Source: Somniosus microcephalus (Eukaryota). Taken from it: a DNA stretch of 64,000 nt. The stretch covers positions 250,480,001 through 250,544,000 of the forward strand of contig CM126209.1 in the NCBI GenBank assembly GCA_052327205.1, in the 5' to 3' direction. Under the pieces are notes generated by a model, which did no database searches, was not told the origin of the DNA, and worked only from the letters and a program-made list of their open reading frames with translations. The stretch's first letter is position 1; each line of letters starts with the position of its first letter. Shown piece after piece: positions 4,911 to 63,400 of this stretch. Position numbers and translations under genes: made by a program.

Positions 4911-7034
4911 TGCATTCTCTTAGTGACTGTCTTGTGTGTGCCTTTGCCTATTCTATTGAAGTCACGCAGTGCATACTACAGTGGCTGCAGCATGGCCTAT
5001 GGAAGGCTGCTGACTTTCAGTGGGGGACACTGCAAATGCCCTTGCTGGTCGACCTTGAGGAGCTGGTGGCTGTGGGTGTCAAATCAATCATCTTCTTGTT
5101 CTTCTTCACTCTCCTCTCCCTATTCTTCAGCACTCACTGTCTGGGCAGGCTGCATTTCTTGGGTGTGTGAAATGAGGAAGGCACAAGAGTGGAGTTGTGC
5201 TGACGGGAGGGCAGGAAAGCATGAGGTGCATGCCAAAAAGAGGATAACGTATGAGGATACCAGCATCTTGTATCCTTTCAGCCCTGCCGCTGACCAAGGG
5301 CTCAGCCATGCCCCTGCCAAGAATGGCCTGCACCGTCTCCTCCAAGGGGTGAGGTGAGGCTAGGAATGGGAGATGTGCCTCGTGATTGGTGCAGATTGTT
5401 GGTAGGTGAGCGATTGCGGGGGTGGGGCTTGTGCAATTTTTTGAAGTTAGGAAGGGAGTTCAGCTTTAAGAGCTGAATATTCACATTTGGTACTTCTTTT
5501 TAATGTCCAATATGTTTTTAAGAGGCAAAAAGGGCTGAAAATGGTATTGTCTCACTTCATTTTAATTTGTATTGCTTTTGTGCGCATGGCCCCTTTAATT
5601 CTCAGACTTCTTCATTACCCACAATTCCTTGTCAGCGCCACAGCCTCGATTCCAGAGGCTGTGTGAAGCTGCAATGCCACTCCTGCACAGGAACTTCGGC
5701 CACAATTTTGCCACCGTTCAGCGGACGGGAAGGGTGGCAGGTCAGCTGTGAAATTTTAAATGATTGACAGCGGGTTAGGAATCCCACTGACAAGACACGC
5801 GCTCCTGCAATTCCCAATGTCAGGTCTGCCGGCGCTAAGCAGACCTGACAGGTAGCTCACTTTCAGTGGCGGACACTGCAAATGTTCTTGCTGGTTGACC
5901 TTGAGGAGCTGGTGGCTGTGGGTGTCAAATCAAATTATTAGTGGCTTTTTTTTTTTCCCCCCAGCTTCTTAACATTCAGAGGTCTCCCATGGGTTTCCCG
6001 CTGTGCCTAGACCTCGTCAGTGAAGCTGAGGCGGGAAGTCAGTGGCCATTGAATCAGCTGATGAGTTGACAGCTTCAAATGTAAACGCAAAGCAGATTCA
6101 GGATGCTGCAAGTCTTTACACAAGTTTCCATCCAGTCTGACCTCATTACCTCTCCCACCATTGACAGATCGCTTCTGTCATCTCTACTTCACCTGCCATC
6201 TATTCCATCAGCATGGGTGGACTCCATACTCTCTTACCTTGGCCCTCAGAATCTGACCACAATCAGCCCCAACACCTGCATCACCAGGCACACCAGCAGC
6301 ACCAACAACCACACCAACCTGCTCCAGAATCACCTGAAGCTGCACAGGACAGAAGGCATTAGCACTCGACTACATTGCTGCCCAGGATGCAAGGGCTGGC
6401 CTCACCATGGCCACATTCACTTCACTTGACACTGTACACTCTGGCTGCCACATGATGCGCCAGGTTGGCACCACCCCACACCAACACCATAAAGCATCCC
6501 TACAATGCCCAAGTTATTCCTTTCACACTCATCACCATTGCGGGGGTACTGTTATGCCTCACCATTCACTGCAACTCACTAATTCACTTCCATAGGTGCA
6601 CACAAATCTGTCCAAGAACACAAAGCATTGAAAATAAAGGATTCAATGTTTGACAGCACATTAACAGAAACTTCACATGAACATTGGCTAAAACACGCAA
6701 GTGCCTACCCTTGTATGTTGTTAGTTGGTATGATTGGACTAGGATGAGGGTGAGTGTGAGGGGCGACTAGTGAGTTGGAGAAGTGATAATGTAGCTAGAG
6801 AGGGATGGGTGGAGGTGCAAGGTAAGTTGGTGTGAGTAGGGATGTGCAGGAGTAGGGTAGGGAAGGCAGAGTGATGGGGATGTGATGAGCAGCACAGCAG
6901 GATGAGGTTTAGTGTGGTTTTGCAGTAACATTTCATGATCTACTGAGATCATTGAAAGGTTTGCGCCACTGCAGCCTGGTCCTCCTGCCAACATGCCAAC
7001 AAAAACAGGTAAATTGCTCATTCATTTCAATGCT

Positions 7035-7265: not shown

Positions 7266-7401
7266 AATTACTTTGAGCCATTTGCAAAAGCTAAGATGCT
7301 ATTTAAAGATTTTTTTTTTAATTGTACCTTGAGGATGTATATATTTATTTCCTTCTAACTTCAGTGCAGTAGTGAGGGAGTGCTGCATTGGCGGAGGTAA
7401 T

Positions 7402-9984
7402 GGGCTGGATTTTGTCATGGGGCGGGCTGGGGTTGTATATTCCCACTTTTCGTGTTAGCCACCCGATTCTAAATCGATGTGGGAGAATGAAGCGATTTTA
7501 ACTTAAGTGGGCAATTGAGTTTCTGCGTGTGGGAACCCATGGCCCAATTAGTTTTTTCAGTCTGAAACTCGCCTCCGATGACGTCATCATTGCTGCTGCA
7601 TTTAAGGTCTGCAACAAGCCTTGCTTTTTCTGCAGACTGCCAACCTTTTGGCCTTTCATGCTAGAGGGACCTGGAGGCAGAATGACCAGCGAGGGACCTA
7701 GGTCTGCTCCCAGGTTTGATGACGTCGCCCTGCAAGCTTTAGTGGAGGGAGCAAGAGCCAATAAAGAGGTGCTCTTCCCTTCTTCAGGGAGGAAGAAGCC
7801 TCCCCAGCAGACCAAGGCTGTGTGGATCCAGGTGGCCCAGGAGGTCAACTCTTTGTCGATAACCCGCAGAACCTGGCTTCAGTGCAGGAAGAGGTTTCAT
7901 GACCTTCTGCGCACTGGAAAAGTGAATATGACTTTCCCATCACCCTTAATCTGATCCCCATTGCCTCTCCTCACCAGCACTCAGCTTTAGCAATCTCTTC
8001 CTCCACATCCCACTTGACACTGACATCCATGCACCCCTACCCATTCCCTCTCTCTCTATGGGCACATTCACCTAATTATTCGACTATGCAGCCCTCACAC
8101 TCCCTATCACTGTGATGCTATGAAAACAACTTACAACACACAGGGAGACCCCTTGGTCTTGCCACCTCACTCCATCTTTGTCTCCTTCTAAGCATCTATG
8201 CTATGGATTCTCTACACTCACTCCTTCATTCTCACTCAAACTCCACTTGTCTCCCTCATTGCAGGAAAAGAGAGCTCACAATAAGAGGGAAAGAGCGAGG
8301 ACAGGAGGAGGGCCACCCTCAGTAGCCCAGCTCACCCCCTGGGAGGATGCAGTCCTGGAGATCGTAGGAGGGGAGGACGATGCGCAAGTGGGGGATGGAC
8401 AGACGGGTGCATCACAGCAAGCTGGTGACAGAATAGTTTTCCATCTTTCTCATTGACATTGCATGAGTCAGTGATAATGATTCTGAAGCTCTAACAGATG
8501 GACTTATGATCATCTGCAATATGCAATGGGCACGTAAACTTGGCATCACATCTCACAGAATCACAGAATCACAGAATCTACAGTGCAGATAGAGGCCATT
8601 TCGGCCCATCGAGCCTGCACCGACACATATCCCACCCGATCTCTGACCCTTTCATTTACTCCCCCCCAGGACCATCGACAGCACCCATCCCCACTAGCCA
8701 GGAGGAAGAGCCTGAGCATTCAGACTCCTCAGAGGAAGCTGCAACCTCTGAGGGTGCAGCGTCAGCAGGGTTCAGCGCACCCAGCACCAGCGCAGACACT
8801 CAAACCTCGGTGGGACCTTCGCAAGATAGAGTAGTGTTGTCACCTGGTGTATCACTGCTCACAAATGAGCATCAGCAGATGGTGGAGACAGGGACAGCAG
8901 TGGAGAGTCCTAGTCGAAGGGTGCAGGACTCTCCCAGCTCGGCTCAGCTGCATGTTGACCCTTTGCCTCTGGGTCCATCCACAAGATCAGCGGTGCTGGA
9001 ACTCCAGGAACAGATACAGGAGTCTCTGGCAGGTTTTGTCTCCACGGTCGCTGTGAGTGTGGAGCGAATGGAGGAGTCCATTGCGAACATGAGCAGAGCC
9101 TTTGTGGAGTCATTGGCGCATCAACGCATCACCATGGAAAGGATTGTAACCTCCATGGAGGTGATAACTCGCCAGAGTGCAGAAAACATGATGAGTGTTC
9201 TGAATAGAATGACATCTCTGGAGGAGCGATGGTCATCTATTGAACAGAGAAACCAGACCTTCATGGAAGTCCTTCTGAGTAGGACTGCCAGTGCAGATAC
9301 GGGTCCCCATGGCCCCCCTGATGTGCAGCAAGGTGCTCTCAAGCCACTTGCAAGCACTGAGGGGAACCTGACCCATGAGAGGGAAGTTGGTGGCAGACAT
9401 CAAGGAGATTGGGGGCTCCTCTCCAGGCACTCACACTTCCATGCCACTGCAGAGCCCTCGGTCAGAATCCCACCAGAGTCCACACCCAACTGAGATCGGC
9501 GTCTCAACCACTGCACAGGTCACACTGGAGATGGGTGTCAGGCTCCAAACTTCCACAGCTGTAGTTATGCCTTCTAAAAGTTCCCCCAGGCCTGGGACAA
9601 CAAAGTCCTGCCACCTGCAAACGATGGCTGATCAAATATCCTATTTAATGGTGGAGCTGCAGCTAATAGTCAGCAATCCAATTGTGCTCCCGCCAGGTTT
9701 CAACGTCGTGTTTCAGAGCAAGCGTGTTTCACTTGGGAAAAGGGTTAAAATCACAAAGGCCTTTCAAAATGGGATAATAGAGGCAATTTAGTACTTGTTA
9801 AGGGCCTTAAGGGCCTATCCCACCTCTTGGAGGCGGGACGGAGAATGGAGCAGTGAACACGATTTCTTGAAAATTGCTTGGAGGCAGGATGGAGGCGGGG
9901 TTGGGCTCACTCGCCACTTTTTTGCAATTTTAACACCCCACACGCCTCCATTCCCGCCTCCACGGCCCTGTGAAATTCGAGCTC
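7402..9984 (+). mobile_element. Non-autonomous PIF/Harbinger element carrying only the Myb/SANT-like gene
   Basis: Imperfect TIRs GGGCTGGATTTT / AAATTCGAGCTC and a 3-bp TSD AAT/GAT split a SINE cleanly. The right subterminal region resembles that of 49261-50101. No DDE transposase is present inside. Confidence 0.8.
7682..9493 (+). CDS. Harbinger Myb/SANT-like DNA-binding protein, 3 exons (7682-7921, 8265-8424, 8670-9493), 407 aa predicted
   Basis: Exon 1 reads RSAPRFDDVALQALVEG..W.QVAQEV..RTWLQCRKRFHDL; exon 2 reads EKRAHNKRERARTGGGPP..LTPWE. GT-AG introns have compatible phases 0 and 1, and the 1224-nt joined frame has no internal stop. Confidence 0.8.
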
Positions 9985-11591
9985 GATGTCTTTCGGATGA
10001 GGCATTAATCCGAGGTTCCCTCAGAGGTGGATATAAAAGGTCCCATGGCACTATTCAAAGAAGAGCAGGGGAGTTCTCCCCCTCAAACAACATCACATAA
10101 AAACCAACATTGCTGATATTGAGAGATGAATTAGGGTGAGAGGAGGCTCGTGTGGAGCCTAAACACCAGCATAGACCTGTTGTGCCAAATAGCCTCTTTC
10201 TGTGGTGTAGAATTCGATGTAATTCTATGTAAAAATAGATTATCTGGTAATTAGCACATTGCTGTTTGTGGGACCTTGCAGTGCGCAAATTGGCTGACGC
10301 GTTCCCTACTTTACAACAGTGACTTAGAAACATAGAAACATAGGAGCAGGAGTAGGCCATTCGGCTCTTCGAGCCTGCTCCACCATTCAATATGATCATG
10401 GCTGATCGTCTAGCTCAATACCATATTCCCGCTCTCTCCCCATATCCCTTGATGCCTTTTCCGGCTAGAAATCTATCCATCTCTTTCTTAAATATATTCA
10501 GTGACTTGGCTTCCACAGCCTTCTGTGGTAGAGAATTCCACAGGTTCACCACCCTCTGAGTGAAGAAATTTCTCCTCATCTCAGTCGTAAATGCCCTACC
10601 CCGGATCCCGAGTCTGTGACTGCACTTCAAAAGTATTGAATTGGCTGCGAAGCGTGTTGGGACATCCTGACGTCATAAAAGGTGCGATGTTAATGCAAGA
10701 CTTTCCTTCTTTCCTCCTGCATTGTAATTTATTTAGTCACGGAACTGTTTGCTGGAGTTCAGGTTTGATTATATTCATATCACAAAGCTATTTGTGCTAT
10801 TTCAACACAGACAATAATCCATCATTTTAACCAGGATGATACCTGCTTAAAAATAATCGCACAAAGCAGTTTGATTAGGTTAAGCTTTTGTAGCTGAACT
10901 TCACTGATCGGAAAATATACTCCTAAACGTTTACACTCACTGCATGGTTTGCAATAAGGCTATCTTTGGAGCAATCTAAATTCAGAGAGTTACAAACATG
11001 TCTCTGGGAACTTTAACCCATCCTGCACGCTTAAAGTATTCTGCATGAAATATAAATCAAATGTACTTCTTAAATAAATGTTATTTACTTTATTACTAAA
11101 ATGCATAAATATCCAATAGAGAATTGTTGGATTTTCAAAAGAAAAAAATCTGTTGATCTCGTTCTTTGGTAGCTTAACAACAGAATGTAGCTGGAGGCAA
11201 ATGTAACCAGAATAGATGCCTCACAAAGATGACCCAGGTGGTTACTAAGAGAACGGAAAGATTTAGACAAATTGTATGAGGAAATCAACATGCAGATCAA
11301 AGATTTTTCTACAGCTAAATGCCTGCTCCACCAATCTTGGTTAAGTAAGTAACGGTTAACTCTATGGAGCCCAGAAGCAACATATGGGATTTTTCTGCAT
11401 TATGCCAAATAGATCTACCATATTCATCACTGTCGCTTACCCTAGTGACTGACGCTTCTCTCACAGCTTCCCTCGCTACACAACAGCAAGCAGCCAAGGA
11501 CTGTGCACCCAGCCAAGCATTTCCTGCCATATCAATCGGTTTGAGCTGTGAGCAGTTTGGCGTGATTTACTGTTCTGCAAAGAGCCAGTTT

Positions 11592-18917: not shown

Positions 18918-19355
18918 GTGTCAGCTATGACTCACTCTTGCCTATGAGTCAGTAGGTAGTGGGTTCAAGTCCCACTCCAGAGACTATGAGCACATAATAC
19001 AGGCTGACACTCCAGTGCAGCACTGTCGGAGGCGCCATCTTTCAGATGAGATGTTAAACCGAGGCCCCATTTGCCCTCCCAGGTGGATATAGAAGATCCC
19101 ATTTCTAAGAAGAGCAGGGGAGTTCTCCCCAGTGTCCAGGCCAAATATCACCTCTCTACCAACACCACCAAAAACAGATTATCTGGTCATTATTTCATTG
19201 CTGTCTGTGGGAGCTTGCTGTGTGCAAATTGGCTACTGCATTTCCTACATTACAACAGTGACTACAGTTCAAATGTTCTTCATTGGCTATAAAGCACTTT
19301 GGAACATCCTGAAGTCATGAAAGCTGCTATAGAAATACAAGTCTTTCTTTCTTTT
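18918..19355 (+). mobile_element. Near full-length tRNA-head Deu-domain SINE
   Basis: B-box-like GGTTCAAGTCC, Deu core TCTTTCAGATGAGATGTTAAACCGAGGCCCC and an L2-like tail. Confidence 0.8.
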
Positions 19356-20380: not shown

Positions 20381-23300
20381 GTAAAGCCTTAGGGTTTACA
20401 GATGTGGAGAGGGAGAAAGAAGGGCTGGATGCCTTGCGGTGCTGTAATGATTGAGGGTACAAGGTGAAGAAGTGGTAGAGGTTGAGGCGACTGGTTGGGG
20501 ACAACAGGAGCAAAATGGGTACCTGTAGCGCTGGCTGGCCCAACCCGCCTTACCTGGGCTCTTTGAGTTTGGAGTGCTTAGTCTTTCTGCATTGAAAAAG
20601 AGGCAGACTAAGCTCATGGACAGTATGGAGAAGTTCCTTGACTTAACTCCACTGGTGATGGATAGATGGATGATTTTCTTTCTGTATCCATCAAGTCCCA
20701 TTCACCCATCACCTGTGTTCTCGTTGACCTACATTAGCTCCCAGTCTGACAAAACTTCAAATTTAAAATTCTCATCTTTGTTTTCAAATCCCGCCATGGC
20801 CTATCTCTATAAATTCCTCCAGTCCTACAACCCTCTGGGATTTCTGCACTCCCCAGCTTTGGTCTCATGCACATCCTTGATTCCCTTCACTCCACCATTG
20901 GTGGCCGTGCCTTCAGCTATCTGGGCCCTAAGCTCTGGAATTCCCTTCCTAAAACTCGCCACCTCTTTACCTCTTTCTCTCCTCCTTTAAGGTTCTCCTC
21001 AAAATCTACCTCTGTGACCAAGCTTTAGGTCACCTGTCCTAATATCTCTCAATGTTGCTCGGTGTCAAATTTTGTTTGATAATTGTAATGTATGTACCTT
21101 TAAGGGGGGAACTACTTTTTACAGCTCATGTATACTGTAGTACCGGCAGTGACCACACCTGTATATAGCACTGAGTAGTAATCTGTACAGGCAGTTGCAG
21201 TGTGAGCCACGTTGAGTAAACACCTGTTGTACCATTCTCCGCAGTCTGTGTCTTAATATACACGGACGTAACATTGGCGACGAGGCAGGTTCGAACCTAC
21301 CTGCAACTCTGCATCACCTCCCGGGGATTTGTTCCTGGAGATCAGTGGATTGGAGGTCAAGGCCAGAGACTCGGGCGTCGACCACGGGCAACCGCCCAGT
21401 CATCCAGCAGAGACTCGAGAATTGTGGGGGAGGCTGTCGAGAGCCAGGCTTGGCTTTCCAGTCGAGGTGGTCCAGCGAAACGGGCTGGCAACAGGTAGTG
21501 CGCAGACCCTTCCCGGACAGCGGCAGGCTAGAGCCCGACCGAGTGGCACAGCAAAGGGCTGAGCAGCGTCGATGGGGGAGACAGAGAGAGGGCAGAGCGC
21601 ACAGGGCGCAGCCGGTGTTCAGGGGCCGAGCAGCGTCGGAGAGAGGGAGAGAGAGATGCGCAGAAACCCGTGAGGTGCCGCCATTGCCACGAGGACCGCC
21701 GAGAGTGGCATTGGCAGCAGCGGGGGAGGAAGGAAAGCACGGGAGATGCCATTTTAAGCCATTGGGAGACACCATTTTAAACCACACCCAAAATGCCGAA
21801 GAGTGGCAGTATCACCGCATTTGACAATGAAGTCGAAGATTGGACTACATATGTCGAACGAATAGAGGTGCACTGCAATGCAAATGAGGTGTCAGATGAC
21901 AAGAAAGCGTCAGTATTGTTAAATTTAATGGGTGCAAAGACGTATGGTTTATTACGAAATCTAGTAACCCCAACGAAGCCAATGGAAAAGAGTTTTGAAG
22001 ACATAGTAACGATACTAAAGGAACATTTAAATCCCACACCGCTGCTGATAGCAGAAAGATTCAAGTTTCACAAACAGAACCAGCATAAGGATGAAAGCAA
22101 TGCTGATTATTTAACAGAACTGCGCAAACTATCGAAACACTGCCAGTTTGGAGCGGGACTGGCAGATACGATAAGGGACAAGTTTGTGTGTGGGCTTCAA
22201 AGTGAAGGAACCCAGAAACGGCTTTTATCTGAAAAGGACCTTACGCTGGAAAAGGCTTACAGCATTGCGGTATCATATGAAGCAGCAGCACGGGGCGCTG
22301 CAGAGATACAACAGAGACCGCAAGAATATGGCACAAACGAAATGTCATATGGAACAGAGAAGTGCTATCGCTGCGGCAGAACAACACACGACCAGAATGA
22401 TTGCTGGTTCAAAGACAAAGTGTGCAGACAGTGTGGAAAAGTTGGACATATAGCACGAGCCTGCAGGTCAGGAAAGAAAACCAACAATAAGAAACCTACC
22501 AAAGGAAAGTACAAGAAGGTACATAAGATGACGGAGAATAGTTCAGACGAACAAAAGAGTGATAACGTCTCCGAAAGCAGGGAACTGAGTTGTCTGAAAC
22601 TACATAATGTGATCACAACAGAGGATCACCAAACCAGTTGGGTCACTCTCAAGTTAGCAGGAGTCCAGGTAAAGATGGAATTGGACACAGGATCAGCCCT
22701 AACAGTCATAAACCGACGGGACTACGAGCGGCTATTCTCACACATACCCTTGAGAGACACAAAAATTATTTTGAAGACGTACACGGGGCAAAAAGTCTAC
22801 ACCAAAGGAAAAATAAGGGTGACCATTTAATATATAACGGTAAGGAAACACCAAAACTAGACCTGTATGTATTGCAAGATGGAGGACCACCATTACTGGG
22901 ACATGAATGGATCCGGAAAATACAACTGGATTGGCATTCCATACAGGCACTGCCTGTGGCTGACAAAAAGGATGACGACGTCACACCTGGGCGACTGTCA
23001 AAGATCCTAACTGACGCGAAAGAAGTGTTCCAGCAAGGACTCGGAACAATAAAAGGCATGACAGCGACGATTAAAATTGAAGAAAACGCAATCCCAAAAT
23101 TTTTTAAGGCGATCCGCCCAGCCGTCGAAGCAGAGCTGGAGAGTCTGGAACGTTCAGGTGTGCTGTCCAAGGTAGACTGGAGCGAGTGGGCTACACCCAT
23201 CATCCCTTTGATGAAAAAGTCGTCGAGCAGCACGCCTGGGGAACCAAGGAAGGTTCGCATCTGTGGGGACTTTAAGGTAACAGTGAACCCGGTCCTTCAC

Positions 23301-25356
23301 ACCGTACAATATCCACTTCCGCGGATTGAAGATATTTTCGCCTCGCTATCTGGAGGGAAACGCTTCACTAAGATTGATCTGGCCCAGGCGTATCTGCAAA
23401 TGGTGGTAGAAGAAGCATCAAAAAAATACCTCAAAATCAACACCCATAAAGGTCTCTACCAATACAACCGGCTGGTATTCTGGGTAGCATCAGCTCCGGA
23501 TATTTGGCAGAGGGCAATAGAACAAGTCCTGCAAGAGATCCCAGGGACCCAGTGTTATTTGGACGACATCCTGGTCACGGGCGAAAATGACAGTGATCAC
23601 CTTGCCAACCTGGAGCAGGTGCTCACTAGATTGAAGGAATATGGGCCCCGAGCTAACCGCCCCAAATGCGAGTTTTTTAGAAAACAGATCTCGTATTGTG
23701 GCCACGTTGTCAATAAAGTGGGGTTACATAAGTCCCCAGAGAAGATTGAGGCAGTAGTCAAGGCTCCAGCACCGGAAAATGTGTAACAACTGAGGTCGTT
23801 CCTCGGGCTGGTAAACTATTACCATAAGTTCTTGCCAAATTTGTCTACAATACTACACCCACTGAACACGCTACTGCAAACTGGGGTGCCATGGAAGTGG
23901 AGTGACGAATGTAGACGAGCTTTCCAGAAGAGCAAAACACTAATCACATCGAAAGAGGTATTGGCCCATTACAACCCGGCATTACCAATTCGGTTGGCAT
24001 GTGATGCGTCACCCTACGGCATTGGAGCGGTGCTGTCGCACAAATTCTCGGACGGCTCGGAAAGGCCAATAGCCTTTGCGTTACGATCACTAACCTCAGC
24101 TGAGCGTAACTACGCCCAGATTGACAGGGAGGCCCTCAGCCTAGGTTGGGGAGTGAAAAAGTTCAATCACTATCTGCATGGGCAGAAATTCACCTTGCTG
24201 ACTGATCACCAGCCTCTTATCTCCATTTTTAATCCGAAGAAGGGCGTTCCGGTGATGCCTGCGCAACGACTACAAAAATGGTCACTTTATCTAGGGGCGC
24301 ACCACTATGAGATTGAATATAAGGTCACGAAACAGCATAGAAATGCTGATGGGCTATCACGCCTGCCACTGCCTACTGCGGAGGAAGCACCAGCAGTGGA
24401 TCCTGTCGAAATATTCCATTCGACTATAGTTGAATACCTACCGGTAACTAACGCTTGTATCGAAAAGGAAACCCGAAATGACCCGACACTGTCTCGGGTA
24501 TATGATTTGACGGTGAAGGGATGGCCAGCACATGCCGACTCACTGTTGCTAGCATTCTCGACAAGGAGAGAACAGCTGTCAGTGTGCCGGGGGACCTTGA
24601 TGTGTGGATCCCAAGTGGTAATTCCACCCAAGTTAAGGGATAGAGTGCTGGGAGGGGTAAAAATGAAAAGCCTAGCCAGGGCTTATGTGTGGTGGCCGGG
24701 AATCGATAAACAAATCGAGGACCTGAGCAAGAGCTGCTCAGGATGCCAGAAAGTCCAAAATGCACCACCACAGGCCCCTCTACACCCATGGGAGTGGCCC
24801 TCATCTCCATGGCAATGGGTGCATATTGATTCTGCTGGTCCATTCATGGACTCAATGGCCTAGAAATTCAGTTGCGTTCGCCAGCCGTTAACGCCATAAG
24901 AGGCGTAGATTTCCAGCGCTAGGCACTTAGCGCCCGGGCGCAGGCCGATCTGCGCCTACACCCAACTTCAGTTGACATTTAGCGCCGGCGCAAAGTGTTT
25001 GCGCCCGCTCAGCTGCGCGCGCAGCTTATGACGTCATTTCGTCGTGCAACGCTGTTTGTGCGCCCCAAACCGGAAATTCAGTGGCGCCCGCCCAATGTGG
25101 GTGTGGCGCTGTTAAGAACTGTGAACTGGAACGCAGCAGAGGCCCTGCGGGCCTCGGGGAGCGCTAATTAAAGGGCACTTAGACTGAACTATAAAGGCCA
25201 GCCATTTTGCTGCAATGACTTTAGTGCTTTGGATTTCTGGACAGAGACCAAGGAACAGACCTTACTGATTTGGGACAACATAGGAGAGGTATTTTTGGCT
25301 TCTGGCCAGAGCTTTGAAATTAGACTCATTGTGATTTCACTGTTTGCAAGTTTATT

Positions 25357-26500
25357 ATGGGGGCTGCATGGGGTTCCAACCCTCAGTTCCAGCATTATGT
25401 GCGAAGGGCTCGCAGACGCTGTGTGAGAGGGCCAGCCATGCCTAGATGCAGAGGGGCCATCAGGCGTCGGCAACGTAGGCCTTACCCACTCAGGGAATAC
25501 CGGCAGCAGGTGTCCTATCTCACCATGACTGCCGCGCATTGTGTTAAGAGGCTGCGCTTCAGAAGGGAGGTGGTTGCAGAGATCTGCCAGCTGCTTCACA
25601 GAGAACTGCGTCCACAGCTGATGTGCAGGACGTCTCTGTCGGTGGAAGTGAAGGTCACGGTGGCTCTGAACTTTTATGCAAGCGGCTCCTTCCAAGCCGC
25701 TGCTGGGGACATAACGAACATCTCCCAGTTTCGCCGTGCATCGCTGCATCCGGCAGGTCACCGATGCCCTTTTCGCAAGGAGACACCAATTCATCTCCTT
25801 CCCCATGACCCTAGAGAGGCAGGAGCAGCGTGCAGTCGAATTTGCCAGGATCGCCGACTTCCCCATGGTGCAGGGCGCCATTGACTGCACGCATGTGGCT
25901 ATGCGGGCACCTATCGACAATGCCGAGGATTACCACAACCGGAAGGGCTACCATTCCCTCAATGTACAGCTGGTGTGTGACCACAGGCAGCGCATCCTAG
26001 CTGTCAATGCCCGCTTTCCAGGAAGCAGCCACGATGCATTTATCCTGCGCCAGACTACTGTGGCTGACATGTTCGAGGCACAGCCTCCACCAAGGGGATG
26101 GCTTATTGGGGACAAGGGCTACCCTTTGTGTACATGGCTCATGACCCCGCTCCGCGCGCCCAGGACCCCTGCGGAGGAGGCATACAACGAAAGCCATCAA
26201 GCCACAAGGAACATCATAGAGCAAACGATTGGCGTCCTCAAGCAACGGTTCCGCTGCCTGGATCGTTCCGGCGGATCTCTACAGTATTCGCCGGATAGAG
26301 TCTCCCAGTTCGTCGTCGTTTGCTGCATGCTGCACAACCTGGCTATCCGCAGGACTCAGGCACTGCCACCTCACGTTGGACCACCACCTCAGGAGGACGA
26401 GCTGGAGGACCATAAGGAGGAGGAGGAGGAGTACCAGCCCAGGAGGGAGCCACAAGGTCCAAGGGCCGTCCGCCGGCGGCTTATTAAACGACACTTCTAG
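25357..26500 (+). pseudogene. Harbinger (HARBI1-like) DDE transposase with a single +1 frameshift
   Basis: Motifs ALNFYASGSFQ, GAIDCTH, NRKGYHSLNVQLVCD, PGSSHDAFIL, GDKGY, IEQTIGVLKQRFR, CCMLHN. An extra T at 25729-25731 separates the two ORF halves. Confidence 0.93.
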
Positions 26501-26755
26501 GCCCCCTGTCAGGGAATGGCTTGTGGCAATGAACGCACCTGAATGCAGCCGCTACGCAAGCCCTCAGCCGGTTAACGCAACAACCACTTGAAACATGACA
26601 CCTGGACAAGCTGAATAAATAAAAAGCTTTATTTAACAAACTCAGGGCCCTTCCCACATGAAACAGAAAAACAGACAAGACCCCCAAAAAACAGTAAAAA
26701 ACATATCTCACTCCCACAACCTGGGGAGGAATAACAAAAATTGTCCTTCCAATTG

Positions 26756-27049
26756 GCCTTCATCCTCGGCCTTACCAAAATAAGCCCCCCCCCTCCAGAA
26801 CACAAACACCCTCATATAAAAAAACATTTGCCTTCATCTTCGGCCTTACCAAAATAAGCCCCCCCCCTCCAGAACACAGACACCCCCATATAAAAAAACA
26901 TTTGCCTTCATCTTCGGCCTTACCAAAATAAGCCCCCCCCCTCCAGAACACAGACACCCCTATATAAAAAAACATTTGCCTTCATCTTCAGCCTTACCAA
27001 AATAAGCCCCCCCCCTCCAGAACACAAACACCCCCATATAAAAAAAACA
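26756..27049. repeat. Minisatellite, 4 x 74 bp, between the convergent Harbinger genes
   Basis: Unit GCCTTCATCTTCGGCCTTACCAAAATAAG(C)9TCCAGAACACA.. starts at 26756, 26830, 26904 and 26978. Confidence 0.92.
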
Positions 27050-27344
27050 GTTGGCAACACACTCTACTTGGTGTGCCGAGAGGGCGAGTCCTTGTGCAGG
27101 CTTCTCCGGCCCCTGCCCGACTTAATTCGTTGTACTTCTTGCGGCATTGGTCACCAGTCCTGGGGACATCGCTGTTGGCTGACACCCTCTGGGCGATTTC
27201 CCTCCAGGCTCTCCTGTACTGCCTCCTGGGAGCCTTCTTGCCACTGTCCGGGCACAAGATCTCTCTGTTCTTTTCCAACCCCCTAAGCAGCACCCTCAAA
27301 GCATGCTCTGAGAAGCGCTGCGCTCGTTCACGGGCCTTCTGCAT
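26994..27344 (-). pseudogene. Truncated Harbinger Myb/SANT-like gene (DNA-binding domain only)
   Basis: RAQRFSEHALRVLLRG..AWREIAQRV..RTGDQCRKKYNEL, with no TGGG exon or coiled-coil exon following. Confidence 0.85.
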
Positions 27345-29127
27345 GGCTTCAGGTGCTATTTGGGTCCACCAGCAGTGTTCAGGCCTAGCTGCAGGGCTCC
27401 ACTATCCAGGGCGTGGCTGCAGACAAAGTCGACCCTTCCCCCTTTAAGAGCTGGCCGGCGTCAGGGTGTCTGCTGTCAATCAAAACATGACCGCACCTGC
27501 GCTGCGCCCGGCCTCGGCGTTATCAGTCCGCACCGCCGGCTTAGCGCCTAAAGATAGGAGTGCAACGCCAGTTTCAGCGCTCGCCCAAACTCCTTGGCCA
27601 AAGCTACTGAATTTCGGCGAAGTGGCCTCCACTTTCCGGCGGGCGCTAACTTTAGCGCCCGCCCGACTTTACCGCCCCAAAAGTGGCTATACTGAATTTC
27701 TAGGCCCATGTTTTTAATGGCCGTAGATGCGCACTCAAAATGGCCTGAGGTCATCAAAATGTCCTCCACCACCACGGAGAAAACTATTGCAGCCTTACGG
27801 ACCATTTTTGCCAGGAATGGCTTGCCAGAACAGATTTGCTCCGACAACGGACCACAGTTTGTGTCCGAAGAGTTCCGGAGGTTCTTGAAAAAGAATGGGG
27901 TAAGGCATTACACATCCGCCCCGTATCATCCAGCCACAAATGGATTGGCTGAGAGGTTCGTACAAACCTTTAAGAAGGCAATAAAGGCTAGATACAAGGA
28001 CAACATTCCGCTGCAGCACAAGGTGGACAATTTCCTGTTCGCCTACCGGAATGCGACACATGCAGTCACCAACCAGGCCCCAGCCATAATGTTCTTTAAC
28101 CGAAGGTTAAGATCTCGCCTGGATTTACTCAGACCAAACGTACGAAGAGATGTTGAGAGTAAGCAATTCCAGCACATCCATGAGAAGCCAACAAGGAGCT
28201 TCAATGTAGGGCAACCAGTCTTGGCCCGCGACTACCGAACAGAAAAATGGCAGCCAGGAACGATATGCACACGGCAGGACCCACTAATGTACACAGTGGA
28301 CGTTGGGGAGAGCATCGTGAGACGCCATGCTGACCAGATCCTAGAGTCACAGGAACAATCAACCCCATGCCTCGCCCATACGTACCTGGTGATGAACCCG
28401 ACATACAGGTCGCATCTACCCCAGAAACAGTAGCATCGGAAGCTGAAGAACCAACCGACGACAGGGGGCCAGAATCGCCTCCGCATCAAGAGCAAGACAC
28501 TCGGGAAAGGCGCTATCCAGAAAGGATCAGGAAGCCTCCCCAAAGACTGAATATATAAATAGACTATTTTCAGCTAATGTTGCATGTTAAAAGTGTTAAT
28601 CGTAATTAGTTTGATATTTAATTGTTAAATGAGTGTTATGGTGCTGTTAATCTAAAAGGGGAGGAATTGTAATGTATGTACCTTTAAGGGGGGAACTACT
28701 TTTTACAGCTCATGTATACTGTAGTACCGGCAGTGACCACACCTGTATATAGCACTGAGTAGTAATCTGTACAGGCAGTTGCAGTGTGAGCCACGTTGAG
28801 TAAACACCTGTTGTACCATTCTCCGCAGTCTGTGTCTTATTATACACGGACGTAACAATAATCACTCCTGCGAAGCGCCTTGGGATGTTTTACTCCAGTA
28901 AAGGCGCTATATCAATGCACGTTGTTGTTGTTAGAGGATGATAATGGTGAGGCACCAGCACTGCTTACGGCTGTAGTGATTGCTGAAGCTTAAGGATGTG
29001 ATACTGCAACATATAGTCTTGAAGGAAAACAAAATAAACAAAACCAAAGAACGTGTGTTGGAATACTGGCATGGTTACATTTTTAACAGGGCATCGACCT
29101 TAGGCACTATGAAGCAGATGAATCATA

Positions 29128-30793: not shown

Positions 30794-33700
30794 TTACTTG
30801 CAGCTGACGACCTGCCAGGGCCTGTCTGGGATACGGTGAGGTATCATGGGCTCTTTGACATTTGATGGACGGCATTCTAGACAAATGGAACATTTTCCGA
30901 CAATGTCCTCAATGTGTTTGCACATTCCGGGCCAAAACATAATGTCACGTGCTTTTTGTTTGCATTTTTCCATGCCCATATGTCCAGCATGAATTTTTGT
31001 CACCATCTCTTCTCCGAGAGTGGTAGGAATGATGATTTTCTCCCCTTTGAAGATGATTCCGTTGATTTGTGACAGTTCGTCTCTGTGGTTCCAGAATTCA
31101 GATATGCTCTGAGGGCATTTCCTCCTTTCCTCAGGCCATCCTTCATGTATGACTTTGCTCAGCAGTGTGAGTTGTGAATCTTTCTCTGTTCTTGCTCGGA
31201 TCTCCTTCAGTTTTGAGTCACTCACAGGTAAGCTGTTGTATACCATGTGCACCTGCACATCCATGCCTTCACTGAGGCTGTTGTCCTGGTAGCTAAGAGA
31301 CTTTCTGGAGAGCGTGTCTGTGACAGGAATGTCTTTGCCTGGACGGTGAATGATTGTGAAGTCATACTTCTGTAGCTGAAGGATCATTCTCTGTAGCCTT
31401 GGTGGGGCTGCGGCTAGTGGTTTCCTCATGATTGACTCGAGGGGCTTGTGGTCAGATTCCACAATGACTTGTCAGCCATAGACGTACTGCTGGAAACGCT
31501 TACATCCAAACAGAATTGCATATAGCTCTTTCTCGATTTGAGCATAGTTGATTTCACTGTCTGAGAGAGATCTGGTAGCGTAGCCGATGGGCTTTCCTTC
31601 TTGCAGTAATACTGCACCTAGTCTGTACTTTGACGCGTCCACTTGTAGTCTGAGCTCTTTGTTGGGGTCGAAGTAGACAAGAACTGGTCCTGGTTCTCTG
31701 GTGATTAGGTCTTTCATTTTCTGAAATGCTGTGTCATGTTGTTTGTCCCACAGGAACTCATTGGATTGTTTGAACAACTGACGCATGGGTGCGTTAATTT
31801 CGGAGAGGCTCAGGGCAAACTTGGCTAAGTAGTTAACCATGCCTAGTACTGTCTCTAGCTCTGCGCGGTTCTTTGGCGGCTCCATCTTCTTGATGGCGGA
31901 GATTTTCTCTGGATCCGGCTTAATGCCATCAGTTGAGGGGTAATGCCCGAAATAACTGATCTCGGTGGATCTGATTATGCTTTTCTCGGGGTTGAGCCGG
32001 ATACCTTTCTCCCGTGATCTTTGTAGCATCGCACGGAGGTTCCTGTCATGTTCCTCTCTATTCCTGCCATAGATGAGGATGTCGTCTACAATTGCGACTA
32101 CTCCGTCGAGGCCTTCATAGGTTTCATCGATCTTCTGCTGGAATTCATCCTGAGCTGAGATAAGACCAAATGGTAAACGCAGAAATCAATAGCGTCCAAA
32201 TGGTGTGTTGAATGTTGTTAGCTTAGATGACTCTTCCGTGAGCTTGATAGTCCAGTATCCTGATCGTGCATCCATTACACTGAAGTAACGTGCTCCCACT
32301 TGCTTGGGTGTGATGTCATCTAGCGTTGGTAGAGGGTAGCGAGGGCGTTTGATAGCCTTGTTCAAATCTTTGGGGTCGAGACAGACTCTGAGCTTGCCTG
32401 TACGTGGTTTCTCAACCACTACTAATGCGTTGACCCACTCTGTCGGTTCTGTTTCCCGGACGATGATTTCTGTATTCTCCATGCACTGCAGCTCCTCCTT
32501 CAGGCGACTACATAGAGCAAGGGGTATCCTTCTCGGTGGGCAAACCACAGTGGTTGCTGCTGGGTCAAGGTGAATAGTGCATTCACCTGGGAATAGTCCG
32601 ATCCCTTTGAAAACGTCAGCAAACTCCTCCATGACTGTCTGCTTCTCAACTGGTGCTGTCAATGATAGCACTAGCTTGACGAGGTCCATGTCTAAACATG
32701 CCTTTAGACCCAGCACTGGAGGTGCTTGAGTGTCAATAATATATAAGTCCAACATCATGTCGCTTTCTTTGTACTTGCATTTCACCACGCATGTGCCTTT
32801 TACAATGAGCTGCTCACCCCCATAGCCGGTCAGTCTGCGTGAGGTGGGCTGTAGCTCACACTCATCCTTCAATCTGTGATACTCACTCAGAGGAATTACA
32901 TTAACCTGAGATCCAGTGTCTAGTTTAAACTTAAGCTCTGTGCCCCGTTTTCCTATCTCAATATCGGCAAAAGCTTGCTCAGTCTCTGAAATCTGTTATT
33001 TCTGTGACACATTATCAATAAGCAGTTCCTCTGCATTTAGCTCTCTATCTGGCATTTGGCTGTCATTCACTGTGTGTACTGTTTTTCCAAAAACAGTCTT
33101 GCAAACTTTAGCAAAGTGGTTCCATTTACCACATTTAGTACATTGCCTTCCTTTGGCAGGGCAGTACTTCTTTTACCCATGCCAGTTGTTTCCACAATAT
33201 CCAGTTTTTGAAGCGTTTTATGTCTGTGTCGCCCATTTTTAGAACTCTCTCTGTTCTTTCTGTTCTGAAACACGCTCTCTGGGCGGTGTTCTTTGGTGTG
33301 TGTCTATTGACTGCGTGCACTGTCTGTTCACGCGAACTGCTCGTGGCGCCGGTTATGGTTTTCAACTGTGCTTGGGCTATCTTGTGCAATCTAGCTATGT
33401 CCATAGCTTTGTCCAGCATTAGCCCGGACCCAACATTCAAAAGTTTCTCTCTCACTTTAGCTGAATGTATTCCAAACACGATGCGGTCTCTGACCATCTC
33501 ATCTTTATCGGCATATACACAGTCTTTTACCAGCAGTTTTAACTCAGTCATGAACTATTCAAACGACTCACTAGCTCCTTGTACTTTCTCCTGAAACTTG
33601 TACCTAGCGAATATCGTATTTGTCTTGGGCATCACATATGCTTCAAAACAGTCAAAATAACTTTTCAGTACCTTTGCTTCATCTGCGGTGAGAGACCATG

Positions 33701-33887
33701 TGTTAAAAATGTCTCTCCCCTTTTCTTCAATCCACAGGAGTAGATAGCTGCATCTTTCTTCCTCCTGTTTGCTTTTCAACGGACCCGAGAACATCAATTC
33801 CACGTGTTGCTTGAACTTGCTCCATTCTCTAGCTAAGTTCAAAGATTCCCAATTCATTCGAGGTAAGGGAGCTCCAATGATGTCCAT
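30794..33887 (-). pseudogene. gag-pol: gag-pol of Gypsy B, fragmented
   Basis: Motifs LDTGSQ, RVCLDPKDLN, IVDDIL, LQVDAS, YAQIEKE, ESDHKPL, HAGHMG..C..C. Sequence stops resembling integrase after RPWQVV; multiple stops and frameshifts. Confidence 0.9.
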
Positions 33888-33964
33888 TTCAAATCCCTGT
33901 TCTGACTCCATGTCTTGTTTTGCACACTTTGTACAAAAATAATAAATTACAGGACAACCGAGTA

Positions 33965-34370
33965 CAGGTAGACTATCCTTCATCCGAAAACCTCGGGACC
34001 AGCCGTGTTTCGGTTTTCGGAAAATTTCGGATTTCAGAAGGTATTTTATAAGACTGGGAAATTTGTCGGAGGTGGGGGTCGGCGGGGGTCGGGGTCGGCG
34101 GGGGGTCGGCGGGGGGTCGGGGGTGGGGGTCGGTGGGGGTCGGGGTCGTGCGCACGACTTACGCTGAATGAAACCTTTCGGTTTTCAGAGGATTTCGGTT
34201 TTCGGAAGTGCGGATAAAGGATACACTATCCCTTATCCGAAAGGGTGGGGGGTCGGCACTGGGGGTCGGCGGGGGTCGGGGTCATGCGCACGACTTACGC
34301 TGAACGAAAAAACCTTCGGTTTTTAGAGGGTTTCGGTTTTCGGAAGTTCGGATAAAGGGTAGTCTAACTG
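33965..34370. mobile_element. Tc1/mariner-pogo (Tigger-like) MITE, dimeric, in the 5' LTR of Gypsy B
   Basis: TIRs CAGGTAGACTATCCTTCATCCGAA / TTCGGATAAAGGGTAGTCTAACTG with TA TSD. Absent from the sister LTR, which reads GAGTATTACAATTT. Confidence 0.9.
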
Positions 34371-45227: not shown

Positions 45228-45940
45228 TTAGTTCAGAAGGTTGTGGGTTCAAGTCCCACTCCAGGGACTTGAGCACATAAGTCTAGGCTGACACTCCAGT
45301 GCAGTGCTGAGGGAGTGCTGCACTGTCGGAGGTGCCGTCTTTCGGATGAGACGTTAATCTGAGACCCCGTCTGCTCTCTCAGGTGGACGTAAAAGATCCC
45401 ATGGCACTATTTCAAAGGGGAGTTATCCCCGGTGTCCTGGCCAATATTTATCCCTGAATCAACATAACAAAAACAGATTTTCTGGTCATTATCACATTGC
45501 TGTTTAAGGGAACTTGCTGTGTGCAACTTGGCTGCCACGTTTCCCACATTAAAACAGTGAATCCACTTCAAAAGTACAGGAAACTCTTTTTTATCCGGCA
45601 CCGACGGGACCGGCGTGGTGCCGGTTTATCAAAAAGTCCGGATTACAGAGGGGTATAGTAAAAGGTACGAGAGACCGGTGCCTAGCAACAGTTCCAGGCG
45701 TCCCTGTTGCTTAGCAAAAGGTGCAGGAACCCCGGTTACACAGCCACAGATCCAGGAACAGCCACTAATATGAAGTAAAACTTACCTGAACCTATTACTG
45801 AATTATGCCGGTTAACAGAGATTTCCGGTTATTTAGGTGCCGGTAAATCGAGAGTTTACTGTATTTCATTGGCTGTAAAGCACTTTGAGACATCCGGTGT
45901 TCATGATAGGTGCTGTATAAATGCAAGTCTTTCTTTCTTT
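45228..45940 (+). mobile_element. Deu-domain SINE with a MITE in its tail
   Basis: GGTTCAAGTCC box, Deu core GCCGTCTTTCGGATGAGACGTTAA..AAAGATCCCATGGCACT..GGTGTCCTGGCCAA. Confidence 0.85.
45577..45861. mobile_element. Tc1/mariner-pogo MITE, 285 bp
   Basis: TIRs CAGGAAACTCT..TATCCGGCACC / GGTGCCGGTAAATCGAGAGTTTACTG with TA TSD, splitting the SINE at AAAGTA/TTTCATTGG. Confidence 0.88.
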
Positions 45941-47417: not shown

Positions 47418-48929
47418 TACGTGCCTTTTCATCTTTAAACATTTCAGGGCACTCCACAAAATTAAATATTTCTGGAGTGCGGCGATTGTTAGGGAGGTAA
47501 CAGTGACAGCCACTTCATATGGCCCGTGACACCCATCAAACAGCAAGAGCAATCTTCAGTTCACTGGACTGATGTTGGTAGAGGGAGGAACATTGTCCTG
47601 CTCTTCCTTCAAATAGCATCATGGGACCTTTCACATCCATCCGAAACGGGCAGTTTTTAACATCACATCCAAAGCACAGCACTACCGACAATGGAGCACC
47701 CCTTCAGTACTGTACTCGAGTATCAAAGCTTGGTATGGGGCTCAAACTTTCTGACCGCGAGGTGAAAATGCGATGAACTAGCTCCAATTAGTTCATTCTA
47801 ACTGGTATTCCTCATGTTGCCCATATTTAAAATAAATATTAATTCCCCATTCCTCATTTTAATTTCTATATAAACACATATCTAACTATTCTTCAACAGA
47901 CCCTGTTCAATCTATGGTATTATAGATTCATCCTTTAGGTTTCCTGAGAAAGTTCTGCATAAATATTCCCACATCGCCAAAGGTAATTGGTCAAAATATT
48001 TATCTAGCCTCATGCCCAGTCTCCCTGCCTCAGTTCCAGCAGTATAGGAACCATCTGTATTGAATGATCTCGGTCTAATCATTTCTAGTCTCACTTGAGG
48101 TTTATTATTAAAACCAATACCCTTGTGTTCTGTATCTTCCTATGATTCTATGATTCTAGTTTGGAACTTCTCCTCAAGCAGATGCTTGTAATAGGGACAT
48201 CCAAAATGTGCATCAGTGTTTGCCCAAATTTTGGTAATTTATGTTATCCAATCCAATCGAGCAGGTGCGAGGGGCCGAATGGCCTACTCCTGCTCCTATC
48301 TTCTATGAAATCAGCTTGGCGTATGTGTTGGGCGAGTTAGGCAAATAAGAACCATCTAAGTGTTGTAATGTTTAGGCCCTTTTTCCATAAATGGGATGTT
48401 TTGTACATCTTCATTGCTTTTCTACAGCTCCTCCACTGACTTTACCTTGTGTTGGCTTAAGTTGTATCTTTCCATTTGGAAAAATCTAGGGTCTCTAAGG
48501 TGAACTCTGCGGACACAACTTCACTAATTGTTGATTGACCGGCACTGCGAAAGCAGAGCAGTAAATTGGGTTTCCAATCCTCCAGGGTTGTCCTGGAGTC
48601 CCCAGGGATTAATCTGTAATCTCCTGGACGTTGCTGCACACAACCTGGGAGAGAACTCATGGACTCCTTACAATAATTAATGTGATTCTTTCACTTTCTT
48701 TGAACACTTTTGTACAACAATTATGACAATATTGCCGGTGGGGAAAAAAGGTTGTTTGACTGACTCGCGAGGATCATCCAATCGGGTACCAAAGAGACTG
48801 TTCGCTTTCCAGTTGTCTGGGAAGGTGGATCTCCAGGAGGATGAAGGTGTCAGGCGAACAATGGTGGGATTGTGTTGGGGGGCGGGGGGTGGACAAAAGG
48901 TGTGGTTGGTGTCCCCAAGGATTGGAAGG

Positions 48930-55405: not shown

Positions 55406-58400
55406 TATTATGTCCGTGAATGATTGAGACACGGACAGCAGGAGTTGAACAAAACAAGTCTTTACTGAATGAAGTCAATCGGGAAACTGAACTACAGAGG
55501 CTCACTAGCGCCTTTTATACAGGGGTGGCCACTGCCGGTACTGCAGTCTGAGACCAGTTATTCTCTTAAAGGTACATACACAACAATTCCTCCCCTTTTA
55601 GATAAACAGTACATAACATTCATTTAACAACTAAATGATAACTAATTACAATCACAATTATGGTTGCTAGATACATTGGTTAAGTTTAAGCAATTATAAG
55701 TTCAGTCTTTGAGGAGGCTTCCTGATTCTGTCTGGATAACGCCTCTTTGGGGTATCAGGTTCTTCTGGCAAGGTTGAGTCGGGATCAATGTCGTTGTTTG
55801 GTTCATCTGCTTCCAATATCACCGATTCTGCGGTAGCTGCAATTGGTACGTCGATTTCATTGCCAGGTGTATTAGATTGTGGTGTGGAGTTGACGTTTTC
55901 CAGTGACTCTAGAATCTGGTCAGCATGGCGTCTTACAATGCTCTCTCCAATGTTCACGGTATACATGAGAGGTCCTTGCCGTGTACAAATCATTCCTGGC
56001 TGCCATTTCTCAGTGCGGTAGTCCCGGGCCAAAACTGGTTGACCTATCTTAAAACTCCTGGTCAGCCTTTCATTCATATTCTGAAACTGCCTGTTCTCCA
56101 CATCTCTTCGGACGTTTGGCTTAACCAAATCCAAGCGGCATTGTAGTCTTCGATTGAAGAACATCATGGCTGGAGTTTGGTTGGTAACCGCATGTGTCGC
56201 ATTCCGGTAGGCAAACAAGAAGTTGTCCACCTTGTGTTGTAGGGGTATATCTTCATTACACATTGCCTTGATAGCCTTCTTGAATGTTTGAACAAACCTC
56301 TCGGCCAATCCATTAGTGGCTGGATGATATGGGGCAGATGTGTAATGCTTAACACCATTGTTCTTTAAGAACCTCCGGAACTCTTCAGACACAAAATGTG
56401 GTCCATTGTCAGAGCAAATCTGTTCAGGCAGCCCATTCCTGGCGAATATGGTTCGTAAAACTGTGATAGTTTTTTCCGTGGTGGTTGAGGACATTTTTAT
56501 TACCTCTGGCCACTTTGAATGTGCATCCACTGCAATTAAAAACATCGAGTCCATGAAGGGACCAGCAAAATCAATGTGCACCCTTTGCCATGGAGATGAA
56601 GGCCACTCCCATGGATGTAGAGGAGCTTGTGGTGGGGCGTTTTGGACCTTCTGGCATCCTGCACAGCTCTTGGTCATCTCTTCAATTTCTCTATCGATTC
56701 CCGGCCACCACACAAATGCTCTGGCTAAGTTCTTCATTTTTACCCCACTCAGATGACCCTCATGAAGCTCATTGAGCACTCTATCCGTCAACTTGGGTGG
56801 AATTACTACTCTGGATCCACACATCAAGGTTCCTCTGCACACTGACAGCTGTTCTCTTCTCGGCGATGTGCTGGCCATCCCTTCACCGTTAAATCATAGA
56901 CCCGTGATAGTGTCGGGTCATTCCGTGTTTCCTTTTCTATGTTTGCATTCATCACAGGGAGACATTCGACTATGGTCGAGTGGAATAACTCCATTGGATC
57001 CACTGCAAGGTCTTCTTCTTCCACCGTCGGCAACGGTAGGCGTGACAATCCATCAGCATTCCCATGCTGTTTAGTTCCTTTATACTCGATGTCATATTGG
57101 TGTGCCCCTAGGAAAAGGGACCGCCTCTGCAGCCGTTGCGCTGTCGTTATCGGTACGCCCTTCTGAGGGTTGAAAATGGAGACAAGAGGTTGATGATCGG
57201 TTAGTGGAGTAAATTTTTGACCATGCAGGTAGTGATTGAACTTCTTCACCCCCCACACTAGGCTGAGGGCCTCTCTGTCAATCCGGGCATTGTTACGCTC
57301 GGCAGAAGTTAACGAGCGTGACGCAAAAGCAATCGGCCTCTCTAAACCATCAAGGAATTTATGTGACAGTACCGCCCCAATGCCGTAGGGAGATGCATCA
57401 CACGCCAGTCTGATCGGCAGTGCTGGGTCGTAGTGAGCCAATACTTCTCTTGAAGTGATTAAGTCCTTACTCTTCTGAAAGGCCAGCTTACAATCATCGC
57501 TCCATTTCCATGCTACTCCCGTTCATAGCAGGGCATTCATTGGGTGCAGAATTGTCGACAAATTCGGCAAAAACTTATGGTAGTAATTCACCAATCTGAG
57601 GAATGACCTCAGTTGCGACACATTTTCAGGCGCTGGGGCCTTAACAACCGCTTCAATTTTGTCAGGGGACTTATGTAACCCCTCTTCATCAATCACGTGG
57701 CCACAATACGATATCTGTTTCTTAAAAAACTCGCACTTGGGGCGGTTGGCTCGTAGCCCATGTTCCCGTAGTCTAGTGAGCACCTGTTCTCGGTTGTTAA
57801 GGTGTTCACTGTCATCTTCACCTGTCACAAGGATGTCGTCCAAGTAACACTGAGTCCCCGGAGTCCCTTGCAGGTCTTGTTCCATCGCTCTTTGCCATAT
57901 CGCCGGAGCCGATGCTACTCCGAATACCAATCGATGATACTGGTAAAGACCTTTGTGAGTGTTTATCGTGAGATACTTCCTAGAGGATTCTTCAACCTCC
58001 ATCTGCAAATATGCTTGTGTTAGGTCAATTTTTGTAAAACGCTTCCCTCCAGACAGGCGAAGATGTCTTCTATCCTTGGACGAGGATATTGTACTGTGTG
58101 AAGGACTGGGTTCACCGTCACCTTCAAATCCCCACAGATGCGAACCTTCCTTGGCTCCTCAGACTTATTGCTTAACGTTTTCTTCATGACAGGAACGATG
58201 GGTGTCACCCACTCGCTCCAGTCGACCTTAGACAACACGCCTGCCTTCTCCAGATTCTCCAGCTCTGCCTCGACGGCTGGGCGAATTGCATATGGTACCG
58301 GTCTTGCTTTGAAAAACTTGGGAATTGCATTCTCTTCTATTTTTATCGAGGCGGTTACGCCTTTAAGAGTGCCCAGTTCTTGTTGAAAAACCTCTTTGGC

Positions 58401-62819: not shown

Positions 62820-63400
62820 AAAATGCCACCTTGGCCTCCATTATACAGCAGTTCTTCTTGTCTGCTTCCTACAGGCTGGAGAAATGTAACAGAAGACTTC
62901 AACAAACTCTTTATTTCCCAGAGGTATGCTCCCACATACATCCGTGGGTAATGATGAGGCCATACCAAGCTGCCAAAGGGGACATCAAACAGGAGGTTGA
63001 TGCATTGGAAAAAAAAAATCATCACTTGCCCCATGGACAACCTGCAGCAGAATGACAGAGCATTGCATTTCTTCTTTGCTGCGCGGGATTACGCAAGGTC
63101 CAGGGTGCCATTGATGGTGCCCATGTAGCTCTACCAGCTCCTGTGCACAATTCTATCACCTTTATGAAATGCAAGGGTTTCCATTCCGTCAACGTGCAGG
63201 TCATCTGTGACCATCAATGTAGGATCATGCAAATGAATGCCCGGTGAATGTAACGACGGCTTTGGTTAAAGGTAGTCCGCAGTGCCAAGATTATTTGACC
63301 AAAAATAAAGTGCAAGATTGGCTCCTAAAAGTCCTCAGGAATCCTCTTGAGCCTGGGCTCATGACACCTCTGAGACCGAGCCGGTGGTAGCAGAATGCTG
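62820..63400 (+). pseudogene. Highly degenerate Harbinger transposase fragment
   Basis: About 63085-63247 translates KVQGAIDGAHVALPAP..KGFHSVNVQVICDHQCRIMQMNAR. Confidence 0.8.

Follow-up and report, generated by a model that had tools for sequence, protein, structure and literature searches.

A transposase-less copy with a broken Myb gene from a high-copy PIF/Harbinger family in a shark-like genome

Introduction

[quoted passage not shown] The same sources describe Harbinger3_DR and Ping/Pong as two-gene elements (Myb-like plus DDE_Tnp_4) with TIRs, a 3-bp duplication of the target site (TSD) and a palindromic target preference, a description that also fits the full-length relatives of the element studied here. 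Layouts retaining only the DNA-binding gene are on record as well. Harbinger-Snek of sea kraits includes multi-copy solo-ORF variants encoding the DNA-binding protein only (PMC8437027), and Harbinger-1M_cIno of Caenorhabditis inopinata is likewise bounded by TIRs and TSDs, has kept the DNA-binding gene, has lost the DDE gene, has expanded and is read as mobilised in trans (PMC13668399). Expansion and expression of a Myb-bearing Harbinger are reported for the newt (PMC5741667). The host genes NAIF1 and MSANTD1-4 carry a Myb/SANT-like domain of Harbinger origin (PMC9392472), and such a domain is also present in the copy described below. Harbingers went undetected in the elephant shark, and other cartilaginous fish should be examined, as PMC9179366 puts it. 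Our literature search found no publication on the particular family treated here, although solo-ORF variants may be treated further in the supplementary material of PMC8437027 and PMC13668399.

Here, we analyse an element at positions 7402 to 9984 (the window copy) of a 64,000-nt stretch of DNA (the window). A first-pass annotation had described it as a transposase-less Harbinger element with a spliceable Myb/SANT gene in an open frame, and had proposed either a self-propagating Myb-only family that supplies its own DNA-binding subunit or a copy kept intact by selection.

Results

Structure of the window copy

The bounds of the element and its three exons were reproduced, as were the GT-AG introns (phases 0 and 1) whose removal leaves 407 codons and a TGA (Table 1). 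Exon 1 matches Pfam Myb_DNA-bind_5 above cut-off (E 7e-10), and exon 3 yielded no Pfam match above cut-off. The window copy retains no transposase coding sequence, as first annotated, and the reported decay of its ends was confirmed, with one to two changes in the TIRs and the unequal TSD pair AAT/GAT. The insert placed by the annotation in intron 2 is indeed there; it resembles 3' tails that lie beside RT-like ORFs elsewhere in the window, and we take it to be a CR1-like LINE tail.

The window copy interrupts another dispersed repeat (flanks 7300-7401 and 9988-10100), presumably SINE-like, and the window has the empty form of that repeat at three places, 19014-19130, 45293-45430 and 47570-47716.

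Table 1. Features of the window copy, in window coordinates
Feature	Position	Strand	Remark
Left TSD, AAT	7399..7401	.	Family TSD is 3 bp
Left TIR, GGGCTGGATTTT	7402..7413	+	Subfamily B/C type
Myb gene exon 1	7682..7921	+	Myb/SANT domain, residues 10-79
Myb gene exon 2	8265..8424	+	Predicted splice sites, kept in most copies
Private 84-bp LINE 3' tail in intron 2	8555..8638	-	5-bp duplication ATCTC at 8550-8554 / 8639-8643
Myb gene exon 3	8670..9493	+	In frame through codon 379 only; premature TGA 9491-9493
Private 1-bp insertion (frameshift)	9406..9409	+	Missing in aligned copies
Private deletion junction	9516..9518	.	2-bp AG microhomology
Sequence upstream of the lost transposase gene	9519..9971	-	Transposase ATG deleted
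Right TIR, GAAATTCGAGCTC (family: GAAATTCGAGCCC)	9972..9984	-	TIR comparison among copies
Right TSD, GAT, 2/3 matching	9985..9987	.	Followed by GTCT, fits family palindromic target preference

A high-copy family with a two-gene full-length form

Searched against its own genome (6.4 Gb), the window copy had 16,631 first-look candidates, and the best 40, which were scored, consisted of the window copy and 39 others at 93-96% identity. These 39 comprised 11 full-length copies of type C (~4.1-4.3 kb), 5 of type B (~3.3 kb), 21 of type A (~2.87 kb) and 2 unclassified copies. The full-length type C (~4.25 kb) carries a Myb gene of 474 amino acids and a convergent minus-strand DDE transposase, tail to tail, the latter a 427-aa frame with the motifs DCTH, GDKGY and IEQTIG that is stop-free in one copy (L073) and 54-60% identical to another transposase in the window scoring as DDE_Tnp_4. 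Both ends of the copies carry the TIR GGGCT(C/G)GA(T/A)TTT, with a near-perfect match of 12-13 bp. Of the 84 copies having both ends, 61 carry identical 3-bp TSDs and 16 more match at two of three positions; the TSD is A/T-rich, unlike TWA. Target preference is palindromic: in 61 copies, the fourth base ahead of the TSD is A in 95% and the fourth base past it is T in 93%, a pattern that the window copy fits. The TIRs, the 3-bp TSD, the target preference and the Myb and DDE genes of the full-length form place the family in the PIF/Harbinger superfamily.

Other remnants in the window are related. A second, diverged (~76%) Harbinger remnant lies at ~5700-7000 on the minus strand; it contains the end of Myb exon 1 near 6935-6990, and its transposase pieces, at 6271-6417, are joined about where the D deletion described below lies. 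Another Harbinger, at ~24900-27700 within an LTR-retrotransposon-like region, has its transposase at 25486-26500 (+, 54-60% identical to that of the family) and Myb exon 1 at 27111-27323 (-, 42%); its Myb gene looks truncated because the two genes are only ~600 bp apart. A small Harbinger transposase fragment (~50% identity) occupies 63071-63296. Three decayed LTR-retrotransposon-like regions (21781-28433, 30794-34184 and 55694-59633), with gag-, RT- and integrase-like frames, and many CR1-like RT fragments are also present, all labelled from their translations.

Amplified subfamilies that have lost the transposase

The deletion forms of the family are nested. Subfamily B lacks transposase residues 40-335; in subfamily A the entire transposase frame is gone, but the Myb gene is still there together with its AATAAA. 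A further deletion of the transposase, D, was confirmed in 6 of 6 loci. Pattern matches across the genome, which are lower bounds and, being based on patterns of unequal length and degeneracy, only roughly comparable, numbered 494 for junction A against 2,736 undeleted at that point, 102 for junction B (8 in the control) against 6,477 undeleted, and 1,111 for junction D. Both sides of the B junction were present in 17 of 20 fetched matches, and the A, B and D junctions are each common to copies with different flanks and their own TSDs. Among 30 loci picked by a 16-mer of the right end (422 matches), 17 were A, 2 were B, 5 bore a transposase and 6 were uninformative. Segmental duplicates (L040, L175 and L190) were dropped before counts were made, and reading the A deletion as a splicing product was rejected, its ends not being GT-AG on either strand.

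The junction of the window copy itself has one exact match in the genome, namely itself; two matches with one mismatch proved to be unrelated DNA. Thus, the proposed self-propagating Myb-only family does not hold for the exact 2.6-kb unit, which is single-copy, but amplification is real for its transposase-deleted relatives A, B and D. That three separate transposase-removing junctions multiplied, that A dropped its whole transposase while keeping a complete Myb gene with its polyadenylation signal, and that A and B dominate the right-end sample would all favour an explanation in which these subfamilies keep a functional Myb by selection, their own TIR-binding subunit aiding their own or the family's transposition, and in which the window copy is a dead member. 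We nevertheless regard this explanation as unlikely. The thousands of two-gene copies, as seen in the undeleted-site matches, could provide the Myb protein, and in sea kraits both types of solo-ORF variant have been amplified, as described in PMC8437027. Moreover, three loci with different flanks (L301-L303; 3 of 12 loci examined in a subfamily of greater divergence) share a junction that deletes exon 2, part of exon 3 and the transposase core; since this Myb-broken, transposase-less form multiplied too, amplification did not require a working Myb in cis. Supply of an own DNA-binding subunit, as the first-pass annotation had it, is not needed to explain the amplification of A, B and D.

All three counted amplified junctions delete the transposase, and the one fully Myb-less copy found (1 of 20 loci) is private, a contrast that has to be read with sampling that began from Myb-side sequence and is biased toward Myb-retaining forms. 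The true junction of that copy is single-copy, with one exact and three one-mismatch matches against four control matches. A supposed Myb-less subfamily of 731 copies was rejected: the sequence matched is what a diverged subfamily ordinarily has in its 5' region, and just 1 of 12 loci was without Myb.

Parentage of the window copy and mosaic haplotypes

The window copy was compared with the majority base of each subfamily at the 20 diagnostic columns that it covers: it agrees with B at all 20, and has 7 differences from A and 13 from C. Judged by these columns, the window copy most likely descended from a B copy that was already nuclease-less. This parentage is read from the haplotype only, because the sites of the A and B junctions lie inside the private deletion and the subfamilies are mosaic. 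A FastTree tree was star-like around the group of the window copy and left A, B and C unresolved; parentage was therefore taken from the diagnostic columns.

In a haplotype table from which seven diverged copies were left out, an identical A junction occurs on at least three Myb haplotypes and terminal variants, each common to a different full-length lineage. The A-junction copies compared were L122-L141 and L162-L221, set against the full-length copies L146, L150, L154, L159, L161 and L070-L079, and four copies (L127, L128, L211 and L220) are mosaic between A haplotypes. Template switching in gap repair would yield such mosaics, recurrent deletion at one site being the alternative, and the haplotypes suggest that template switching among subfamilies is frequent. 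They could also be taken to mean that the transposase-less subfamilies are long-lived helper lineages whose working Myb is kept by selection and renewed by recombination with each autonomous wave. If true, such lineages would account for the occurrence of junction A on several haplotypes, each tied to a different full-length lineage; we consider them improbable.

The Myb frame is broken

The family Myb protein has 474 residues, whereas the window copy holds 379 in-frame codons, after which a +1 frameshift leads through 28 out-of-frame codons to the stop. This frameshift, at codon 379/380, is private to the window copy, since the aligned copies are without the extra base; contigs from four sequencing runs likewise lack one base at 9407. 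The private deletion at 9516/9517 measures 1,783 bp against the full-length form and ~0.9 kb against subfamily B; gone with it are the last ~59 codons of Myb, the polyA signal and the transposase including its ATG. The C-terminal end of the family protein is a basic tail, RRSTRKRKILHK, that may act as a nuclear signal. The ATG and all four splice sites of the window copy are intact. Contigs of the four runs cover the introns and cross the exon-intron borders, the joints 7921/8265 and 8424/8670 are absent among the 15 of 63 joints listed, and the runs look like DNA, so that this absence counts neither for nor against expression.

The gene had been called an open frame with an extreme C-terminus that might be frameshifted. 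A frameshift is indeed present, but the damage is far larger than this wording suggests, and the frame as a whole departs from that of the family gene. Once copies with more than 15 uncovered Myb bases are left out, 12 of 112 copies (A 7/74, B 1/17, C 4/21) have the ATG, the splice sites and a frame that stays open through codons 1-379, and 6 of 112 (A 4/74, B 0/17, C 2/21) have a fully intact Myb gene.

Placement of the LINE tail

The 84-bp tail is absent in the other 39 best copies, and among 140 other copies just one carries an insertion at the intron 2 site, an independent and different element. In that copy (L085), the insertion is 2.6 kb long, CR1-like, in the same orientation and 6 bp from the site of the window tail. 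Inheritance of the tail from a master copy was rejected on this ground. The first-pass annotation had pointed out that the tail lies in an intron rather than an exon. This position carries no meaning: large insertions in other copies hit coding sequence at roughly the rate expected from its length (17 of 29 against a coding share of 61%; counting a shared 63-bp subfamily feature a single time gives 14 of 26), and exon avoidance was rejected.

Tests for selection

Over codons 1-378, the window copy differs from the B majority by 20 nonsynonymous and 9 synonymous changes, against means of 23.4 and 10.6 for 12 junction-picked B copies. Its divergence is the same in coding (32 of 1137 bases) as in non-coding sequence (34 of 1079) and, at ~3% overall, the same as that of its sister copies. 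Preservation of the copy by selection, one of the two readings first offered, thus finds against it a private frameshift and deletion, a neutral ratio of changes and equal coding and non-coding divergence.

Codons 1-110 look cleaner. Here, the window copy has a single amino-acid change, where the mean is 5.7, and 1 of 26 controls equals it (Poisson p ~0.02, post hoc); synonymous changes number only 2. The result is read as chance, because the window copy was chosen for its open frame and its synonymous changes are few too. Residues 10-79, the Myb domain, carry no amino-acid change. Together with the intact ATG and four splice sites, this might be held to mark an incipient domesticated gene of the NAIF1/MSANTD kind, a truncated Myb protein kept by host selection. 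Such an origin is highly improbable: the reading frame has lost its basic C-terminal tail and polyA signal to frameshift and deletion, the ratio of changes is neutral overall, TIRs and TSD are still there, the copy is only 3% diverged from a young high-copy family, and about 1 in 9 copies of that family is just as open.

For variant counts, copies with more than 60 uncovered Myb bases were left out, as was L184 from the A set, and estimates of omega exclude CpG-prone sites. Full-length copies gave omega 0.22 in codons 1-110 for variants found in at least 3 of 22 copies (20 N : 30 S, p 9e-8), and the method picks up selection where it is expected. Singleton variants in A and B gave omega 0.94-1.08, and, like the window copy, look neutral. 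In A, no nonsense variant reaches 5 copies, and frequent variants in codons 1-110 gave omega ~0.5, a value that points toward a Myb gene selected in that subfamily although it is not significant. However, 27 of the 29 variants found in at least 5 of 72 A copies are also present in full-length copies, and these variants are therefore silent on selection after the deletion; variants that are frequent and confined to A or B are almost nonexistent. The variant analysis of A and B thus holds no evidence of a selected Myb gene in the transposase-less subfamilies, and its passive carriage there is the simpler reading.

Discussion

The window copy is very probably a decayed, single-structure member of a high-copy PIF/Harbinger family, most likely derived from B and likely inserted in trans, with a frameshift, a further deletion and a LINE tail gained afterwards and no sign of selection. 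A B-type element with its transposase core already missing would have been the parent. Proteins from full-length copies would have inserted it at the window site in trans, as the two-protein mechanism suggests, and private frameshift, further deletion and gain of the LINE tail would have followed as neutral decay. The Myb gene of A, B and D was probably carried along passively, because the deletions that made these subfamilies left it untouched.

The window copy itself is a fossil and unimportant, and a Harbinger census in a shark-like genome would be a modest addition. The family is of more use as a natural experiment, each deletion form having hundreds to thousands of copies, on whether the DNA-binding partner is ever selected after nuclease loss. 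Neither PMC8437027 nor PMC13668399 uses the word "purifying" in its main text.

Comparison with known systems shows where the present family stands. NAIF1 and MSANTD1-4 are ancient genes found across jawed vertebrates or sarcopterygians (PMC9392472), whereas the window copy is a 3%-diverged repeat with a broken frame. Domestication is marked by an intact frame under purifying selection, and what we find instead is a frameshift, a truncation and a ratio of nonsynonymous to synonymous changes (20:9) like that of the sister copies. Unlike Harbinger3_DR and Ping/Pong, the window copy has neither gene complete, and its TIRs are near-perfect over 12-13 bp only. Harbinger-1M_cIno belongs to an active family with 14 of 19 MADF loci intact and one DDE gene left, as PMC13668399 describes it, whereas here most copies are broken, full-length copies run into the thousands, the genes lie tail to tail and the TSD is an A/T-rich NNN rather than TWA. 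In Harbinger-Snek, transposase-only variants are the more numerous (2,263, as given in PMC8437027), whereas the counted amplified junctions of our Myb-side-biased sample all delete the transposase. The Myb-only layout of Harbinger elements is already known from sea kraits and C. inopinata; the family described here is a new member with an ordinary meaning.
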